Assembly (NCBI GenBank): GCA_051313645.2
Contig: JBNRSN020000020.1
Location: 98,580,001-98,644,000, forward strand
Reading direction: 5' to 3'
Length of the DNA stretch: 64,000 nucleotides
From: Centroscyllium fabricii
Lineage: Eukaryota
Part shown: piece after piece, positions 6,551 through 47,082 of the stretch
Position numbering within the stretch: the first letter of the stretch is position 1
How the letters are laid out: every line of letters begins with the position of its first letter
Program-made: the position numbers and the translations under genes
Notes under the pieces: generated by a model
The model's input: only the letters and a program-made list of their open reading frames with translations
What the model was told of the DNA's origin: nothing
Database searches by the model: none

Positions 6551-7126
6551 TGATGTGGAGGTGCCGGTGTTGGACTGGGGTGGACAAATGCAAGAAGTCA
6601 CACAACACCAGATTATAGGACAACAGTTTTATTTTAAATCACAAGCTTTCAGAGCTTTTGCCCCTTCGTCAGGCGAAAGAGAGACTGACTTAAAGAAGGC
6701 ACATATGGGACGATGGGAGAAATCCGATATCTCCCACATCTCACCTTAGCGGAGATAGACACACAAAGGCGTATTAACATATTTTAAGAGTTTCATTTAA
6801 ACATAGCATATATAGAGAGATAACTCTCTCTTGATTGCTTGGTGTCCCTCAGCTGAGGTGTGATGTGAAACAGCTGGAGAGACCACATTGTCATCTCTAT
6901 ATATGCTATGTTTAAATGAAACTCTTAAAATATGTTAATACGCCTTTGTGTGTCTATCTCTGCTAAGGTGAGATGTGGGAGATATCGGATTTCTCCCATC
7001 GTCCCATATGTGCGTTCTTTAAGTCAGCTTCTCTTTCACCTGACAAAGGGGCAGAAGATCTGAAAGCTTGTGATTTAAAATAAAACTGTTGGACTATAAT
7101 CTGGTGTTGTGTGACTTCTTGCATTT
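6551..7126. mobile_element. Penelope-like element remnant: inverted pseudo-LTR pair with hammerhead motifs
   Basis: 233-bp inverted arms at 6586-6818 and 6894-7126; extra tail at 6551-6585; TSD TTTCCTGCAACA at 6539-6550 and 7126-7137; CTGACGA..GAAAGCTT core on - in the left arm. Confidence 0.85.
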
Positions 7127-7318
7127 TTCCTGCAACAGTAACTACGAAAGCACATCATTGGCTATAAAGTGCTTTGGGGAGTCCTGAGGTGGTGAAAGGC
7201 GCTATATAAATGCAAGTCTTTTGTTCCCCTTTTTATCCCCCCCCCCTCCCCGTCTATTAATGACGTGGTCAGTACTTTGGGAGTTCATAAAAGGTTTTTA
7301 TTTTCCCTCCATTTTCAG

Positions 7319-7461
7319 AGATGCTTGAAGTTGCCCAAGCAGAGGAAGCGGCAAGAGAGAACGATCCCAGTCGGGCGGGCAACACACGGCGGGGCATACA
7401 GATCATTGATGATGAACCGCAGCCGCTAAGCAGTGGGGGCTGCTGCTCTGCTGCTTCTTAA
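7319..7461 (+). CDS. RAB21: RAB21-type small GTPase, last coding exon
   Basis: attttcag|AG ATG...TAA; encodes MLEVAQAEEAARENDPSRAGNTRRGIQIIDDEPQPLSSGGCCSAAS*, with the RAB21-typical RRGxQIIDDEP and a di-cysteine prenylation motif. Confidence 0.95.
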
Positions 7462-10400
7462 ACCGAAGCCCCCCCACTGCAAAGCCCGCCGCTTATGCAG
7501 AGAATGAGACTGCAGTGGTGACCGTGGGGCACTGGACAAGGCGGGACTCCCATGAACGAACACAAGCTGCAGGATGAACGGACTGGAGGCACCATTTGTG
7601 GTGTCGCCGGCCTCCGCGCCGAGCTATTGGAAAATGAAGATCTTCCGCTATTTCTGGCTGAAAGTTGTAATTTATTTATTATAGGAAAATAAGTCTTGAG
7701 GGGGGGGAGAAAAATGGCCTCTGCAGGACTTCCAAAGCAAAAAGCCATTGCTCTTGTGGGGACTGGATTGAGTGACAAAATAAAAGCTGCACAAGGCAGG
7801 ATTTAGTTTTGAAGGGATGGTCATGTACCTAGGGAGTAGCTCCGAAGTAATGACAATTTCCTGCTTGTTGTATGCCATCAGTTAATAGCCCAACAGTTTG
7901 GGCCTAACTCGAATATAATCCTTTGCGGTTGCTTGCCCACTGCAGGTGGCACACTACAGACGTTCCTGGTGATGTGGGGTCCCGTGAAAAGTATAGCATG
8001 TGGTGCTTCTCGCTGAAAGGGGAGAACCATGCTTGGAAGTATTTTTTTTATATACACTCCCACCCCCCCCAACACAAACCGATGAGGGCAAGGAGCTGAG
8101 TGCAATGCGCACGCTAGTGTTTTTTTTTGCATTGATTGGTAGATGCGTCTTTCTAGATTATTCTGGCAACTCCCCTACACTCTCCCATTTCAGACCTGCC
8201 GCCTTCTTGCACATTTTATTTTGCTGCCTCTCGGACAGAGATGGCTTGAGTTGGTGCCAATCAGATTTGAATGTGATGCTCGTGTTGAAATATCTCGCAC
8301 TGTGTGCTTTTAAAGGAGTTACACGCCATTAACCACGGAACATGCCGTTTCGACCTTTATCTGATCAGTGTTACAGAAGTTCCATTTTGGAACTTGTCTC
8401 CTCTCCAGCTTCTGCAGTGTGGCCGCCCAAGTAGCTGGCCCATTCCGTTATGTGTTCAACATAACCCCATGTGTCTATTTAAACTGAGCACAGCTATATT
8501 TTATAGAAGATGCTTGCAAAATGGAATCGTGTTACTGGAAAATAGCATGGATACACATTGGTGTGATTCTTGCAGCTTAAAGGTGTTGGGGCTATATCTA
8601 AGGCTTGTATGAAATTTCCCGTGGTTGGCGCCAAGAGGAAGTGCTGTATTGATAAGTGTACTGGAACTTTTTGAAATCTGTTGGGAGCACTTGAGTGTAT
8701 TTACTGACCGAGTACCTACAGTCCTCTGCCCTGATGATTATAGGTAACTATAATTTTGACTTTACTTTTTTATTTATTTGAAGAAACAGAGGATGTGATA
8801 ATCCACAGGCTGTTTGAGATAAAATAGCTACCGCAGGTTATCAGGCTGACATTTTTTGTCTAAATTTGTGTTTTTCATCTGCATTTACAAAGAAATGCCT
8901 AGCTTTAAGTTCAGTTCGGGTATTCAGTTACATTAGTGTGGCCTTGCCCATCAACTGTCAGTTGTATGCAAAATGTCTTTCGCATGATGAAATCCAGTAA
9001 ATATTTCTGGCAGTTATTAGATTTCTATCTCTTGCTCATATAGTCTGCTATTTATTTTAGTCACTTAATTTAAAATGTGACTTTCAGATTTAACTGTTGA
9101 ATTCTCACGTTGCTGTCTGTGTTGTTAACTCCTATTGAGCACAATGTGACTGAACAGCCAGGAGTCCTTGTGGACTGACTGTTCCCCACAACTGGACAGT
9201 TTGTCAGGTTTACTGTGGCTCAGATTTCTTTCATAAGTGCATTTTTGTTTTAGATGTAAACTCTTTCCCGCCCCCCCCCCCCCCCCCCCCCGTCCTTCTC
9301 GCCCTCCCCTTCCAGTGCCAAGCCACATGCTAATTCAGACTGAATAGAGGTCATTGTCTTGCTAATATGGTGCTGTGGTTTAGCAAACCAAGACTATATA
9401 TTTAAAAAAAGTCCCCTCAAATTTCAGCATCTTCGCAGAATTTTGTTGATGCTTTGTCATTTATCTTGTGTGTTCATGTTGTGCTATTTGAGTTTTTCTC
9501 CTGGAGTATAGCGGTGTGAGTAATCACGATTTGGTACAAGTAAAAGTGCATCTGATACACAGTAGATATTGTATGTGATTTTACTTGCTATATTCTCCAT
9601 CCGTTGCTTGGCACAGAGCTGAAAACAATCTTGTACTCTGATAACCTTGAATTTAAGCTAGTCGAACATTGTAACATGGTTTTCTAGGTTTGACTTCACA
9701 AATTGCTGTTGGTGGTGGTAGGTCAAAGGTTGGTTTGCTTCTATTGGGGAATAATGGGAACTCCAACTTGCTGTTTTCTTTCTCTTAGATTAGAGATACA
9801 ACACTGGTTCAATCAGTGCCCTTTCCCCTCAAACCTAGTACAGGCTTAAAGTAGCTTCACATCTAACAAGTTCACTTTTTTTCCCCCTTCTTGGTAACAT
9901 TGCCAAGCTGGCTGTTCAGGCAACTGGTTGATCGTTCAGGCAACTGGTCGATCACTGCATCATATTGCGTGGCAGGAAACTCGTCCGTTTTACCCACGGA
10001 CTAAACTGCAGTCGATCCACTGATGCACTGCTTATAACTGGGTTCGGTGCTATACAAACCTTTTTATCGTGTGCTCAATGTGAGATGCCCGTGACCGTTT
10101 GAGGTGAATTGTATTCTATTCCGAGGTGAAATGAGTAAAGGTAAAATACTTAAATGCACCACAGTAAACTTATGTAATGAGTGACCACAAGGTTGACGAA
10201 AATGGCATTGAGGACTTGCATCTGCTGTAGTAATGATGGTAAATGGACTATCAAAACACTTGGAAATCGGAATTCTGTTTTTGGTGCCATTTGTATAGGC
10301 TTGCATTGAAGTGAAAATAACATTCCCCTCATCAATTTTGGTGAGTTTGTGACAGAAATCTTGTGTAAACAACTTGTGGATGTTGGGGTAACATTTTGGT

Positions 10401-19482: not shown

Positions 19483-20303
19483 TACAATTCCAGCTGAATT
19501 GGCGAGCCTAAATTGTTCACTATTGGGAAGGGTAGGTATAAGGACAGAGCATAAGCTAAAATGCAGAGCTCATCTCTCCCATGTTTATCTTAATGTCTTT
19601 GGTATAACACTATCTGTGCTTTAATTGATAGTGGATCCTCGTAACATTTTCCATTAACTCAGGGGTTCCTCAGAAATTTATACCCTCTCTCACGCTGATC
19701 CTTTTCATACTAATGTCCTGCTCCACATCATCAAACCATATCCACCTATTCTATATTCAGCAACTTTCTTGATTGCAGCTCCTCGCTGAACACAATCTCC
19801 GTTCCTCACGCAGTGCAATGCCTGAATCTCCTCCATGCCCTCCGACACAACAGCAAAAATCGCTCAAGTCTTTTTTATGTTTCTTGCAAATCGAACCAAT
19901 GGCGATCACCGTTTACCCTTGACGTCTCTATCCTTAGTCCTTCTTGGCCGATCTCCTCTGATCTTAAATAGAATTAACAAATCTCCATCATTTCTATGGC
20001 TTCCTCCAAGAAGCCCAGGTTCCTTTTCTCATGCCAAACACTTATCCCTCTCCTCCAGGAACTCCTAACTCTAAGTCGGCCCAGGATCTGAATATTTCCA
20101 TACCCGAGGAGGCTCTAATACCGCTCGTTATCTGATAGGCGATCCAACTCTCAGCTCTAGCCTCCAATGTCACAACCATTCCTGTCCCCCACTTTATTTC
20201 ATCAGTGCCACTATGGCCAGTGCTCCAAGCCTTCCTCGCATGTCTCCCAAGGTGCACATATGCCGTCCTACACCCATTTCCTCCTCCCAACTATTAACTG
20301 TTA

Positions 20304-20774
20304 CAGGTTGAGCACCGTTAATCTGGCACGGTCGGGACCAGGACCGTGCCGAATTTGTGAAAACTCCGAATGATTGAAGCTTCGGCGAGCGCATGCGCAG
20401 ACCATTCAAAATGGCCGCCGCGAAAGGCCGGCGGCCATTTTGAATGGTCTGCGCATGCGCTCATCGGCCGGGGAGGCCTGGGACAATACCAAGGTCGACT
20501 TTTTAAATTTAGAGAAAGTAATTCTGTTCCATTGTAAATGCATCTTGCCTCAGTTTCAAAGTTGAAAGCTAACAAACTATGCGGCCAGACGTCACACCCT
20601 TTGTGGGTTGGGAGGAAACTTTAGTTTTAACATTGAAGCTTCGGTCTGCGCATGTGCTCATCATTCACCAAGTGCGGTGGCCATATTGCGCATGCGCCGA
20701 CCACTTGGGGAAATCTGTGCCGGACGTCGGAAGCTGCCGGTTTTTCGGGTGCCGGATTCACGGTGCCCAACCTG
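20304..20774. mobile_element. Tigger/pogo-like MITE with NRF1/YY1 motif arrays and AT-rich cargo (~20485-20630)
   Basis: TA|CAGGTTGAGCACCG...CGGTGCCCAACCTG|TA; TA target-site duplication (TSD) and Tigger4/MER46-like TIR start. Confidence 0.85.
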
Positions 20775-22433
20775 TACAATCAAGACTTGTCACATTCTAA
20801 CTCAACCAAAACTGTAACTATTTACCTCCCTAAATCGCTACCTCCTCCCTACAATCTTCAGGCTTTTAAAACCAAATCTTGGCATCACCTAATTATTGTT
20901 TCATTCGCCTCTTTTTTAAATCTTTTCAATCTTGGTGATGATGTCTCGCACTGTGGGTATTAAATTTTAATCTTGAGTTCGCAATGAAAAAAAACTCTGA
21001 AGGATTTTCACCACTTACAAATACTTCATCAGTGTTTCATGATGCTGCCGACTGCTGTGATAGTCGCTCATTATATAGTTTTGCCTCACTAATCCCGAAT
21101 CAATCCAACACCACAAAATCTGCTGGATTAATGGCGGTCAGAACAACCTATTCAAGATGGCTGCTCCAGTGCGGCACAAATATACACAATCCCGTTGTTT
21201 ACACTGGCAGAGCAAACTGAAACTCCTGCAGTACGTGAAAACAAAGCACAGAAAAAGCTGGAAGTACTCAGGTCAGGAAGCATCTGTGAAGAAACAGAAG
21301 TCAGTCAATGGTTCAGGTATAAAACCCTTAGGACTGAAGGATCTGTGACCTGAAGTGCTGACTGAATGACTTCTGTTACTCCGAAGATGCTGCCGGACCT
21401 GCTAAGCTGTTTCGGTTTTTGTTTTTAGATTTCCAACATCCGACGGTATTTTGCCTTTTGTTTATCTTGTGTGAAGAGTCCATAGAAATGCTGCTACCGT
21501 TGTTCAATTTCTTTTGGCGTTGAGTGTCCAGGGATAGCGATCAGACGGCAACAATCAAGACTAAAAAAACGTCAGTAGGAGAAACAGAGCAAGGTGACCA
21601 GAGGGAGCGTGGACTTGCTTTGCTAAGTGCACTTTCCTTGATAAACTGAGGGTTGTTGGTTTATCAAGAAAAGGAACACGTGCCTAAATCGCTTTGTTTC
21701 CAGATCAGAGCGCTGGAGTCAGAGTGCAATTTTTCCATTTGCCAAGTGCCTTATGTACTGCTCCAAACTGTGGGCCAATGAGTGAGCCGTTAAGATTATT
21801 GTGGATTCCAGATAAGAATCCCAGATTAAACTAGATTGTACCGCAGTATTGTCAATTTGGTGATTTTTTCTGTGGTCAAAGAGCTAAGACTTTGGTGTTT
21901 AATGGCTTTAACAAGCTCAAGTGTGTGCAGAGACACAGGTTTGTCAATCTACTTGCCCTATTGTTAATTGTACCTCTACTGAAACTGCACTGTAGGAGAA
22001 AGTTTGTTGAGAAGAATGTCAGAGTGCAGGGTGAATACAGTACCTCACATCACTCTGAAAATGTAACCGAATAATACTTTACCTTTTTGTTTTTTTCTCT
22101 AGCCTACCCAGAAATCATTCAGGCTGTTGAATAAATATAAATGTACAAATAAATATCATAGAAATCAAAGGTGACAACCTTAAGGGTTGGTTTTCAACAT
22201 ATTCTTAGGGCTACCGCCATAGAATTTTCATTTTTCACAAGGGTTTAACTTGAGGCGTGAAGAAAATAAAACGTATTAATGTTCTTTGCACAACTTTCAA
22301 TATTTTCATTTTATTGTACACATTCAAGAGTGGGAGAGATGGCAAGATAATCTCAAGAAACAGATGACGGGATTGCCCCTAACCTATATTGCATGCACAC
22401 TTACATATGATATCTGCGTATTTTAGTAACCGT

Positions 22434-39574: not shown

Positions 39575-39748
39575 CCTCCTTTCTTTTGGAATTCGGCCTT
39601 CTGCCTCTAGCTTGGCTCTTGCCTGTCTCCTTTTTAAGATCCGGTGATACTGTTTGGCGTTTACATATAACGGTTCTTCTTCCAGCAGCTCTGCACCTGG
39701 CAAGGGGATTCTCTGCATCGCTGGAACTGTGCTGGCCCCTGGCACCAT
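39575..39748 (-). CDS. NFYA: NF-YA exon 8 equivalent (subunit-association helix A1)
   Basis: atgcag|ATG...AGG|gtaagt; 174 nt encoding MVPGASTVPAMQRIPLPGAELLEEEPLYVNAKQYHRILKRRQARAKLEAEGRIPKERR. Confidence 0.98.
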
Positions 39749-40730
39749 CTGCATGGGTTGCCATAAAAAAGAGACAATGGAAAGATTGGTAAGAAGAAGG
39801 CAGCTTGCTCTCCTGTATAGATGATAATTTTGCAACATATATATCGTACTTCTTCCATGGTTTAGTAAGCTAGTGTATCCTAGGAGAACCAGGAAGCCTC
39901 AAACTTGCTGTTTATCACAGCTTAGGTGACACAAAGAAGAGATGTTCCTGTTAACCCTGCAAGGAATGCAGTACCATTTCCTCACCAAATTCAAAGCTAC
40001 GGCAAGCGGCTTTTTAGTAGAGCGTCATGGAATGGTAAAATGCAGATCTGTGCCAATGAGACAAAACCTCTACCCAGCTGTGCCACTGGGAAGACTCTCT
40101 GGCAATGGTTTGGTTCAATGGGATTATGAAATGTTAAATGAAAGGCACCCTGCATCACTATCACGCCTTAAATAGCTTGTTCAAGAGTGTGACTAGTAGT
40201 AGCTCGTGGACTGATTGTTCATCTTCATGGGTCGGGTCCAGGGATATTGGGTGGGGTTAGGAAATAAGGAACTTAATCACAAAAATGTTACAAGAGAAAT
40301 ATTCAGAGAAGACTACATTAATGATTATGTGGCTATATACATTTTTAACTCTACATTACTCATAATTAGAAAAAGAAATATGAGGAGTGGGTGGGCAGGT
40401 AACCCGCCTCAAAACCTGTGCTTATAACACACAATTGGTCTGCTTTACAGGAAAGCAGGAAAACCAGCACAGGGTAGCATGGCTGAGATGCCTCCTAAGG
40501 TATCACTTTGTCTTTGCTCAGTACACTCCCTAGTCAGGTTGACTAACAGCTGGACCAGAGCAGAGAACCACGGACAGGAACCTATGTCCTACCATATTAC
40601 AACATAGCACATCTTTATCACCACATGTAATTCTGACAGATGACCAATGATTCAAAATGCATTCGCCTCAAGGGTAGAATCCTCTTTTTGTTAACTTAAA
40701 CAGACCTGGTTATGATTTGAGTAATAAGTA

Positions 40731-41213
40731 CAGGTTGAGCACTGGTAATCCGTTACCCGGAAAGCCGGCAGCTTCAGTTTCACGGCATAAATTGCCCCGA
40801 CTGCCATACGCAAAATGGCCACCGCGATCGAGGCTTCGGCGAATGATCTGCGCATGCGCCGCTGGACGGCGAGCGCATGCGCAGATCATTCAAAATGGCC
40901 ACCGGACGAGCCGGGCCTTCTGTGGCGTCAGGGCGCGGCGGCTCGCGCCGCGTTTTGAATGTGCGAGTCCCGGGCGCCCGCCATGGCGAAGCACGCGGTT
41001 CCCCGGAGCAGCCTGCTGGTTGTCATCAGGAGGCACAAACCGCAGCTGAGACTCCGCAAGGACGTCCGGCAGCAATTTCCAATGTTGTGCGCATGCGCGT
41101 GGCCATTTTGAATGGTGCGCGTATGCGTACTGACCGACTTCATTCTGCCGGTTTTTTTACTTTCCCGGCACGGGCCTGGTGCCGCCCGTGCCGGATTAAC
41201 GGTGCTCAACCTG
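40731..41213. mobile_element. Tigger/pogo-like MITE carrying CENPW-like cargo
   Basis: TA|CAGGTTGAGCAC...GTGCTCAACCTG|TA; internal GCGCATGCGC and CAAAATGGCC repeats flank a foreign segment at ~40921-41086. Confidence 0.88.
40983..41066 (+). pseudogene. CENPW: Captured fragment of CENP-W-like exon 1 inside the MITE
   Basis: Kozak ccgccATGG; encodes MAKHAVPRSSLLVVIRRHKPQLRLRKDV, resembling vertebrate CENP-W N-termini as recalled (chicken VPRGTLRKIIKKHKPHLRL, human APRGFLKRVFKRKKPQLRL); ORF runs on into MITE sequence and stops at 41111. Confidence 0.72.
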
Positions 41214-41272
41214 TATTCTGTAAATGTTTAAAGCTGTGCTCTATTCACTATATTGCTCCAAACTAGACTTAC

Positions 41273-41439
41273 CATCACCATACCGCCTGCATTGACCATA
41301 CTTCCAGTGACTGGTAGTGTTACCGTTACAGTGCCCTGGCTGCTATTTGTGGTGCTTGTGCTGGCTCCTGTCTGGACAATTTGGGCCCCAGCAAGGCTGG
41401 CAGCTGGAATGGTGATCATGCCTGTAACAGGGACTGCAA
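41273..41439 (-). CDS. NFYA: NF-YA exon 7 equivalent (alternative acceptor 18 nt inside, exon start 41421)
   Basis: ctaaag|TT GCA...ATG|gtaagt; 167 nt encoding VAVPVTGMITIPAASLAGAQIVQTGASTSTTNSSQGTVTVTLPVTGSMVNAGGMVM. Confidence 0.95.
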
Positions 41440-45171: not shown

Positions 45172-46502
45172 CTAGTCAGTTATGAAAACAATTCAATTTT
45201 TTTTGTTGCCATTGTTCGGAGTGGAACACAGTTAGACATTTGTACATTGCTGGTAGTGTACAGAAAACACGGTTTAGTATATACAATAGAGCCATACACA
45301 AAGCATTGTAGACAGCCCAGAGGATCTATTCTAGTGAGCGGTTTTGATTTTCAGTTGTACTTTTGTAGATGCCTGGTTTAGTGATGTTGATGACTGTTGG
45401 TTCTTTTTACAGGTAGGTTGGATATATGGGAGATGTCACTGTGCTGGGCAGCCACTGGCAGGTCAAAGCTGTTCACAGAATTTCTTCTGGCTCAGCCTCA
45501 ATGAGGGCATTAGGTAAATATTCACATCTATAACCCAACATATTCTTTTTCAGCTCTTCTCTGGCTTTGCATCCATTCGCCATGAAGAATTCCTCCCTCT
45601 GACCACAAGAGGTTCTAATACGCTCTTCTGCAGGACTGCTGGGAATGACTAGTAGTATCATTCAACATCAAGAGTCGTTGGGTGTCGTATTTCAGCTGAG
45701 GAATTCATCCATCTTGACTGCAAGCTGATGACACTCATTCATCTGAGCCAAATGGATTGGGGCAGCAGTTTTTAGACTTGGATAAGCAACTTCTAGTGGG
45801 ACAGTAACCCTTCTCCTATCTGCACGAGTTAAAAAACAAGCTTGAAAAGATGTGCGGGTTAGATTGACTGGCCAGGAAAAATTGACCCTTAGTGTTAGGG
45901 GGATTGAATGTGTGGGGTTACGGGGATAGGGTGGGATGTGTGTCGGTGCAGGCTCGATAGGGATCGCGGGATATGGGGACAAGGCAGGGATGGGGTGCTG
46001 GGTTTGGATGATCAGCCATGATCTCATTGAATGGCGGAGCAGGCTCGAAGGGCCGAATGGCCTACTCCTGCTCCTAGTTTCTATGTAACATTTTGATGCT
46101 TAAAAAATGCATCAAGGATTGACTGAGCTTCATCATTAATGGGACCACGTTAATTTTTGGCGTTTCAAACCTTAACTAGTTGAACAAGGGGCCTTTGGAG
46201 CCAGTTTCAAAAGTTACTTATATTATGAAATGTCTCAGAAACAGCCCAAAATGTTTCAGATACAAATTGAAACGCAATGACTATTTTATGCAGACAAATG
46301 TGGCAGCCATTTTGTGCATGCCAAGGTCTTAGGAACAACAGTGAGATGAATGACATTATTAGTGGTATTGGTCGAGGAAGGAATGTTGGCCCTAACACCA
46401 GGAAAACCCCCTGCTCTTCTTCAAGTCGTATCATGGGATTTTTAATGTCCAACTGAACAGTAGAGGGGACTTCTTCAAAACTGCACTAAGTGTCAGCCTA
46501 TA

Positions 46503-47082
46503 CAGGTCCGACACCGTTAATCCAGCACGGTCAGGACCAGGCCGGTGCCGCACTAATGAAAAATCCGAACGACTGAAGTTTCGGTGAGCGCATGTGCAGA
46601 CCATTCAAAATGGCCACCGCGCGTGCATGCGCAGACCATTTAAAATGGCCGCAGCGCATGCGCAGCCATTCAAACTGGCCGCTGTGGAAGTAGTTTCATG
46701 GCGCTGTGGGAGCCCAATTTAGATATGTTAATAAGTATTCCACCGCTCCACAATGGGACACTTGGGCACCCCGATATCCGCCGCCCTTTACGCGCATGGC
46801 GTTGGGTTTGGGTTGCATTCCCTGCGTTACACTTTTTAACCCTCGCCTGTTCGTCACGGGGGAGGGGTTAATATCGAGGCCGTTAACTGATTCTCTTTCC
46901 GCAGCTGCTGCCTGACCATTCAAAATGGCCGCCGCGCATGCGCAGACCATTCAAAATGGCCGCAGCGCGCGCACAGCCATTCAAAACGGCCGCTGCGCAT
47001 GCGCAGACCAGCCAGACGTATTCGTGCCAAGACCACTGAAGTTCCCGGATTAACGGTTTCCGTATTAACAGTGTCGGACCTG
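46503..47082. mobile_element. Tigger/pogo-like MITE with tandem NRF1/YY1 units and CpG-rich cargo (~46684-46910)
   Basis: TA|CAGGTCCGACAC...GTGTCGGACCTG|TA. Confidence 0.85.

Follow-up and report, generated by a model that had tools for sequence, protein, structure and literature searches.

A CENPW first-exon piece inside a TA-flanked MITE is found at more than 5,000 places in the genome of Centroscyllium fabricii

An element in an NF-YA intron and its CENPW piece

The window analysed here is a stretch of 64,000 nucleotides from the shark Centroscyllium fabricii (assembly GCA_051313645.2, contig JBNRSN020000020.1, positions 98,580,001 to 98,644,000), which forms part of G000:C712 in a genome of 7.2 Gb. 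The host gene context is NF-YA, of which one exon, with a match to PF02045, lies on the reverse strand at 39575-39715. In the intron immediately before this exon, antisense to NF-YA and ~60 nt from the donor of the NF-YA exon ending at 41274, sits a MITE (40731-41213). An earlier note on this DNA had described it as a TA-flanked TIR element, and the inverted repeat and the TA at each side bear this out: TA target duplication and left TIR occupy 40729-40752, right TIR and TA 41192-41215 (both given on the forward strand, as are all features of the element), and the inverted repeat measures 24 nt with the TA counted and is 92% complementary. The TIR pattern has four matches in the window, against 0.55 expected. 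TA duplication and short TIR are features of pogo/Tigger MITEs, and the TIR start is common to a Tigger-like lizard family; the name "Tigger-like" that the element had been given refers to the TA duplication and the TIR likeness only.

The left arm (40753-40918) contains internal hairpins and repeated GCGCATGCGC and CAAAATGGC motifs, which we take to be NRF1-like and YY1-like, respectively. Over both arms (40753-40918 and 41064-41191), GCGCATGCGC occurs three times, and CAAAATGGC or its reverse likewise three times. The 3' end of the left arm reads GAGCCGGGCCT and is also present in minisatellite-type relatives without cargo, while the right arm (41064-41191) has a start that is kept in a daughter family with other cargo. 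Between the arms lies a captured CENPW piece of 145 bp (40919-41063), which matches the native gene at G000:C1:428958824-428958973. The GC-rich insert outlined earlier at ~40921-41086 is thus real, but its gene-derived part is shorter, as from 41064 onward the sequence belongs to the MITE arm. The piece comprises what is presumably a CRE-like site (40923-40930; TGACGTCA in the native gene, mutated in the window copy), a CHR-type TTTGAA at 40954-40959, which native CENPW also has 24 nt upstream of its ATG, and the CENPW start codon with the first 27 codons (40983-41063), ending 12 nt before the native splice donor, or 8 nt when a TTC that nearly matches is included. The positions of TTTGAA and of ccgccATGG at 40983 were as previously described, as was the frame of 42 codons, the stop of which lies at 41109-41111.

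A second match to the piece is not found in the window, which agrees with the claim that it is absent from four other copies there; these copies are however different subfamilies rather than empty versions of the same element, two having other internal sequence and two variant TIRs. Related MITE copies with yet other interiors lie at 20302-20776 and 46501-47010, and the interior of the latter ends in a pyrimidine tract and CAG, resembling a splice acceptor.

The native CENPW gene lies on another contig (G000:C1), has three exons with GT/AG sites, and encodes a protein of 77 aa that is identical at 72 of 77 residues to P0001 of the horn shark Heterodontus francisci. A search of the genome with the Pfam CENP-W profile gave 20 matches, of which the sole one above the cut-off is exon 2 on C1, and of the remaining 19 loci, 18 are copies of the cargo. 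Within 130 kb of sequence around exon 2, exon 1 was found 10.7 kb upstream, with its ATG at C1:428958893 and a GT donor at its end; several MITEs of the same clade lie in this region. Exon 1 matches the cargo only, has no MITE arms beside it and is followed by exons 2 and 3. The window cargo and the gene are identical in 128 of 150 columns (85%), with one 5-nt gap, and the cargo corresponds to the CENPW 5' region plus most of exon 1, as had been proposed. The likeness to CENP-W holds at the DNA level and through better-preserved copies, but not for the window peptide taken alone, for which a Pfam scan matched none of three queries. That missing match could suggest that the cargo is native transposon sequence resembling CENPW by chance or through a transposon-derived exon. 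We give this reading practically no credence: it is ruled out by the native three-exon gene, by the DNA identity over 150 columns to a real exon and by the wide conservation of the N-terminus, which is common to the CENP-W of sharks, rays, chimaera, coelacanth and caecilians; the CENPW piece is moreover missing from other MITEs of the clade. Since the same N-terminus occurs in rays, chimaera, coelacanth and caecilians, the direction of transfer was from gene to transposon. The cargo was also not seen in any autonomous element found here, so that it does not appear as a standard part of one. A horn shark CENP-W-like protein on another contig (P0006) has an altered N-terminus and is perhaps a retrocopy.

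Copy number and turnover of the cargo

The CENPW first-exon piece inside the MITE has been copied to more than 5,000 places in the genome. An exact 21-mer from the coding cargo has 5,242 genome matches (its reversed control has none), and at least one TIR is present in 29 of the 30 loci that come first in genome order, both TIRs in 22 and TA on both sides in 18, with differing flanks and their own target duplications. A query with the cargo returned 1,689 candidates; those scored, 39 apart from the window copy, have 94-96% identity. The decay-corrected 21-mer count is ~12,500 and a protein search gave 10,747 candidates, from which we estimate ~10,000-12,000 copies of the chimera, counts that include ~100 copies of another element, family B (see below). 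The copy count proposed in the earlier note thus shows that the chimera transposed after capture and exists in thousands of copies with TIRs and cargo. Exact ends of the MITE clade number 124,365, equivalent to at least 62,000 elements, and the CENPW-bearing form is therefore a minority. In one locus (L022), three cargo-bearing copies stand in tandem within ~1.7 kb.

By the features tested, the CENPW-bearing MITE is a multicopy Pack-TIR: more than 100 bp of host sequence (145 bp) lie between the ends of one TIR element, the parental locus is identifiable and without element flanks, the cargo is not a retrocopy of a spliced mRNA (exon-2 sequence is absent, and family B holds the donor and the intron start), and the same chimera is present at unrelated sites. 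A DDE_1 partner with the ends of the MITE was not found in the 50 loci read out of 150 scored, among 1,715 candidates; the paired ends that were found at DDE_1 loci start TACAGG(A/G)AACTC and differ from those of the MITE. On one small contig (G000:C967:6.98-9.29 Mb), eight DDE_1 matches have open frames of 558 aa free of stops. Paired TA-CAG ends are absent at both of the loci read there (L207 and L208, two of the eight), and the cluster possibly represents domesticated Tigger-derived genes.

By five diagnostic sites the copies can be placed on a ladder: at one end, 5 of 76 have the haplotype closest to the gene, and at the other, 28 of 76, the window copy among them, have the most derived haplotype. 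In a second organism, a contig that starts at the left edge of the cargo and has five gapped positions carries the diagnostic letters, a hint that the chimera may predate a species split.

The cargo itself has been exchanged. A daughter MITE family, younger than the CENPW-bearing MITE, has retained 17 bases from the start of the cargo, the derived allele included, and continues with ~270 other bases. This GC-rich cargo contains a CCAAT box and, in antisense, a splice-donor-like site (L110:2375-3078, L227-L256). This structure was present in 30 of 30 loci, with both TIRs in 29; the family has 1,274 candidates, and the scored ones are 98-99% identical. The source of the daughter cargo was not located among the scored matches, which copies filled. 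A further MITE subfamily (L053:1719-2245, L062:349-883, L206:592-1126) has a GC-rich interior with an ATG in good context and a motif that we assume to be X-box-like; to judge from these features, its interior looks like a further gene start. The interiors of the daughter family and of other members of the clade may be gene starts in general.

Family B and the route of the piece

Among the top protein matches to the piece, 19 of the 20 fetched belong to an element different from the MITE, which we call family B. It is ~2 kb long and ends in CAGGG(T/C)GC. Of 25 full elements, 12 have perfect target duplications of 5-6 bp and seven more have such duplications with one mismatch; duplications of 4, 7 and 8 bp occur once each, and three elements have none. 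A 5- or 6-bp target duplication defines hAT5 and hAT6, but IS3EU also makes 6 bp (PMC12730594), and family B is provisionally assigned as hAT5/6-like. Its CENPW piece corresponds to native positions 8810-9004 (L052 coordinates throughout) and comprises a GC box, exon 1, the splice donor and 19 intron bases; the donor is kept in part of the copies, and at least 109 copies carry the stretch adjoining the CENPW promoter. Because family B holds the splice donor and 19 intron bases, it shows that the start of CENPW was captured at the DNA level. The same conclusion had been drawn before from the fact that similarity in the MITE stops short of the end of exon 1, which alone would be insufficient.

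Family B also carries, head to head with the CENPW piece, a first exon with donor that matches STAR_dimer (57.8 bits) and that we take to be QKI-type. With the STAR_dimer profile, nearly all of the 150 scored copies stop at model position 35 (1,181 candidates). At L145:4150-4420 and genome-wide, this first exon with its donor is dispersed by family B, with 1,652 candidates at the DNA level. The native QKI exon 1 was not located among the scored matches, which copies filled.

In family B copies without CENPW, the sequence joins directly across the insertion point, and the motif at this point is similar to the native sequence at the start of the upstream match. Pieces of family B lie beside the gene itself (6611-6950 and 7103-7601, 1.3-2.3 kb upstream of the ATG). 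From this relic we infer that family B captured CENPW locally, with the reservation that the relic could be a later arrival. Between the upstream match and the promoter, ~550 bp of family B are absent from the present CENPW gene, and would once have been part of the gene and since been lost.

The capture of a host first exon by the MITE, which the earlier note proposed, is supported, but the piece is likely to have come from family B rather than directly from the gene. On sequence comparison, a relay from gene to hAT-like element to MITE appears quite probable to us. The MITE piece (8824-8973) is wholly contained in the B piece, and the majorities of MITE and B agree against the gene at 8863, 8883, 8884, 8887, 8888, 8910, 8919 and 8942; at four of these eight positions a related organism's CENPW-like contig has the letter of the gene (depth table). 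Non-CpG divergence is 0.042 in B (34 copies) versus 0.028 in the MITE (76 copies, a sample that leans to close copies; 26 genome-order copies give 0.029), and CpG divergence is 0.145 versus 0.098. Within the aligned cargo, the oldest MITE haplotype and B are one base and a short deletion apart. At the left junction, cargo-free relatives end in GAGCCGGGCCTTCC and the gene reads GAGTCC, with TCC in common. At the right junction, the MITE arm starts CGTTC and the gene has CATTC; CGTTC, a 5-nt junction match, occurs in 3 of 14 B2 copies and in none of 23 other B copies, and its G is not in the gene.

Against the relay, the eight common letters could be old states of the gene, and the two changed residues are variable among other sharks and rays. 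A B copy with all MITE-specific changes together was not present among 39 aligned and four added copies. The short deletion was rejected as a marker of the relay, as it recurs in several B branches. Also set aside was a FastTree phylogeny of the cargo with the gene as root, built from 111 rows of 150 columns and drawn without support values, after three MITE and five B rows had been left out because of low cover or identity; in it, the majority of MITE rows cluster together among B rows, and a few stray.

If the common letters are ancestral, the ancestral CENPW gene itself could have been the DNA-level source of the MITE piece, independently of family B; MITEs of the clade are dense around the gene, with several in the 130 kb read. 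Such a direct capture is unlikely in our view: two unrelated transposons would have had to take one and the same exon in an identical ancestral sequence state, with one piece falling wholly inside the other, and the junction G, seen in one B branch only, would still have to be accounted for, while family B offers more than 100 templates (at least 109 copies, against one gene). Copying of a 5' fragment of the CENPW transcript in RNA-templated repair would fit the lack of intron sequence in the cargo, and a related organism's CENPW mRNA-like contig ends at 8829, 5 nt inside the left edge of the cargo. Contigs, however, cannot show where transcription starts, on which strand or at what level, and the RNA status of that run is a guess; no exon-2 sequence follows the cargo, and its letters are common to family B, an element with DNA from the intron and from upstream of the gene. 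An RNA template is thus very unlikely.

Under the relay, a hAT5/6-like element with the QKI-type first exon, likely adjoining the CENPW gene, would have copied the upstream region, exon 1 and 19 intron bases, giving rise to the structure now seen in family B. A break in the hairpin-rich interior of a MITE may then have been repaired on a family B copy, with a switch in at the shared TCC and out at the shared CGTTC. A pogo/Tigger-type transposase acting in trans would have spread the resulting chimera, which is found in successive subfamilies, and in the daughter family 17 cargo bases were kept and the rest replaced. The window element is therefore best described as a non-autonomous TA-flanked MITE that likely obtained its piece through repair-type template switching from an older hAT-like copy, and that likely carries it passively.

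Passive cargo and comparison with known systems

CHR elements act in G2/M genes, according to the parts of PMC5729532 considered here, a paper that mentions CENPW once. The short ORF and the CHR site had been pointed out in the earlier note; there is no clear sign of selection on them. In 79 copies, the coding cargo has 25 synonymous and 60 non-synonymous changes (omega, dN/dS, 1.08; p 0.82), and the CHR and the ATG are kept in 67 and 72 of 76 copies, near neutral expectations of 0.84 and 0.92. Cargo and arms show the same CpG change (10-14%), which points to germline methylation. The CRE-like site is intact in 4 of 76 copies and lost in large subfamilies, and the daughter family has spread without CHR or ORF. 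As the MITE lacks the donor, it cannot splice to downstream exons via the CENPW site.

Some data lean towards function, in which CHR, Kozak context and motif-rich arms would act as a portable G2/M promoter, or the copies as a source of small RNAs on CENPW, and spread would have been favoured. Besides the retained CHR and ATG, non-CpG change is slightly low in the coding cargo (in 41 copies 1.5%, versus ~2.9% in the arms, p 4e-5, a set biased by the way its copies were found; after removal of the search seed, 1.8% versus 3.1% in 15 copies, p 0.07), cargo-like contigs occur in two runs guessed to be RNA, and in bats copy numbers are higher for Helitrons that carry promoters or 5' ends, some of them driving transcripts (in the parts considered of PMC4224331, PMC4778049). 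In view of the near-neutral retention, the omega value and the decay described above, a functional cargo is decidedly improbable, and it is likely that the CENPW piece rides as passive cargo. A few copies may have been exapted; that some became cell-cycle promoters or a source of small RNAs acting on CENPW is a doubtful proposition.

Thousands of copies of one host first exon are present in this genome, and candidates for a second, of QKI type, number about a thousand. A single chain appears to connect two TIR superfamilies, and a relic lies next to the donor gene. Gene, family B, MITE subfamilies and daughter, as dated layers, form a natural record of capture and preserve the CENPW promoter in an old form, and the thousands of copies of one CHR-bearing fragment offer a test of when a dispersed promoter piece turns regulatory. 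In such genomes, repeat masking will hide exon 1 of CENPW and QKI, and reads from the copies pile onto them. A literature search found no report of capture of CENPW or another host gene by a shark or other chondrichthyan transposon or MITE; the families may be catalogued in Repbase or Dfam without note of the cargo.

Among the TIR elements of plants, Pack-MULE and Pack-TYPE elements are non-autonomous and collect fragments of several genes. The elements described here are alike in being non-autonomous TIR elements with gene pieces, but the host is a vertebrate, the ends are pogo-like and hAT-like rather than of MULE or CACTA type, and the copy number of a single cargo is far higher. We lean towards the view that in this shark, cut-and-paste transposons are first-exon collectors on the scale of plant Pack-MULEs and pass cargo between superfamilies: the starts of QKI and CENPW would have been brought together in a hAT-like element, from which a Tigger-like MITE would have taken the CENPW piece and spread it ~10,000-fold, with its daughters swapping in new promoter-like pieces.

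The Anolis family TcMar-N17_AC, whose ends have been likened to those of marsupial Tigger4, has the TA duplication and a TIR starting CAGGTTGAG, but its TIR diverges after the first bases, and no cargo is reported in the part of the source considered (PMC3014272). In bats, Helitrons brought promoters and first exons to thousands of copies, and HelibatN3 amplified the NUBPL promoter, start codon and first exon ~thousandfold, according to the parts considered of both sources (PMC4778049, PMC4224331). The two systems have in common a vertebrate host, a bias to 5' gene ends and sequential captures. HelibatN3 is however a rolling-circle element, in contrast to the cut-and-paste elements here, keeps the splice donor and was shown to drive chimeric transcripts, whereas the CENPW MITE has no donor.

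Closest are the animal Pack-TIRs, which likewise have host sequence between TIR ends, an element-free parental locus and repeated transposition. In the sections covered of the survey of Tan et al. (2021; PMC8277862), these number 370 cases, almost all single-copy, with four multicopy in reference genomes. The multicopy case that the survey describes in detail, the frog CAPSL 5' UTR in hAT-N8_XT, is also a 5' gene piece but has three copies, versus thousands here (PMC8277862). The sole cartilaginous fish of the survey, the elephant shark, had no cases, and the CENPW cargo, at 85%, falls below the 90% identity limit of the search, as described in the same sections (PMC8277862). A relay between superfamilies is not reported in the sections covered (PMC8277862), and what is new and notable compared with known Pack-TIRs is the scale together with the likely hand-over of cargo from one superfamily to another.
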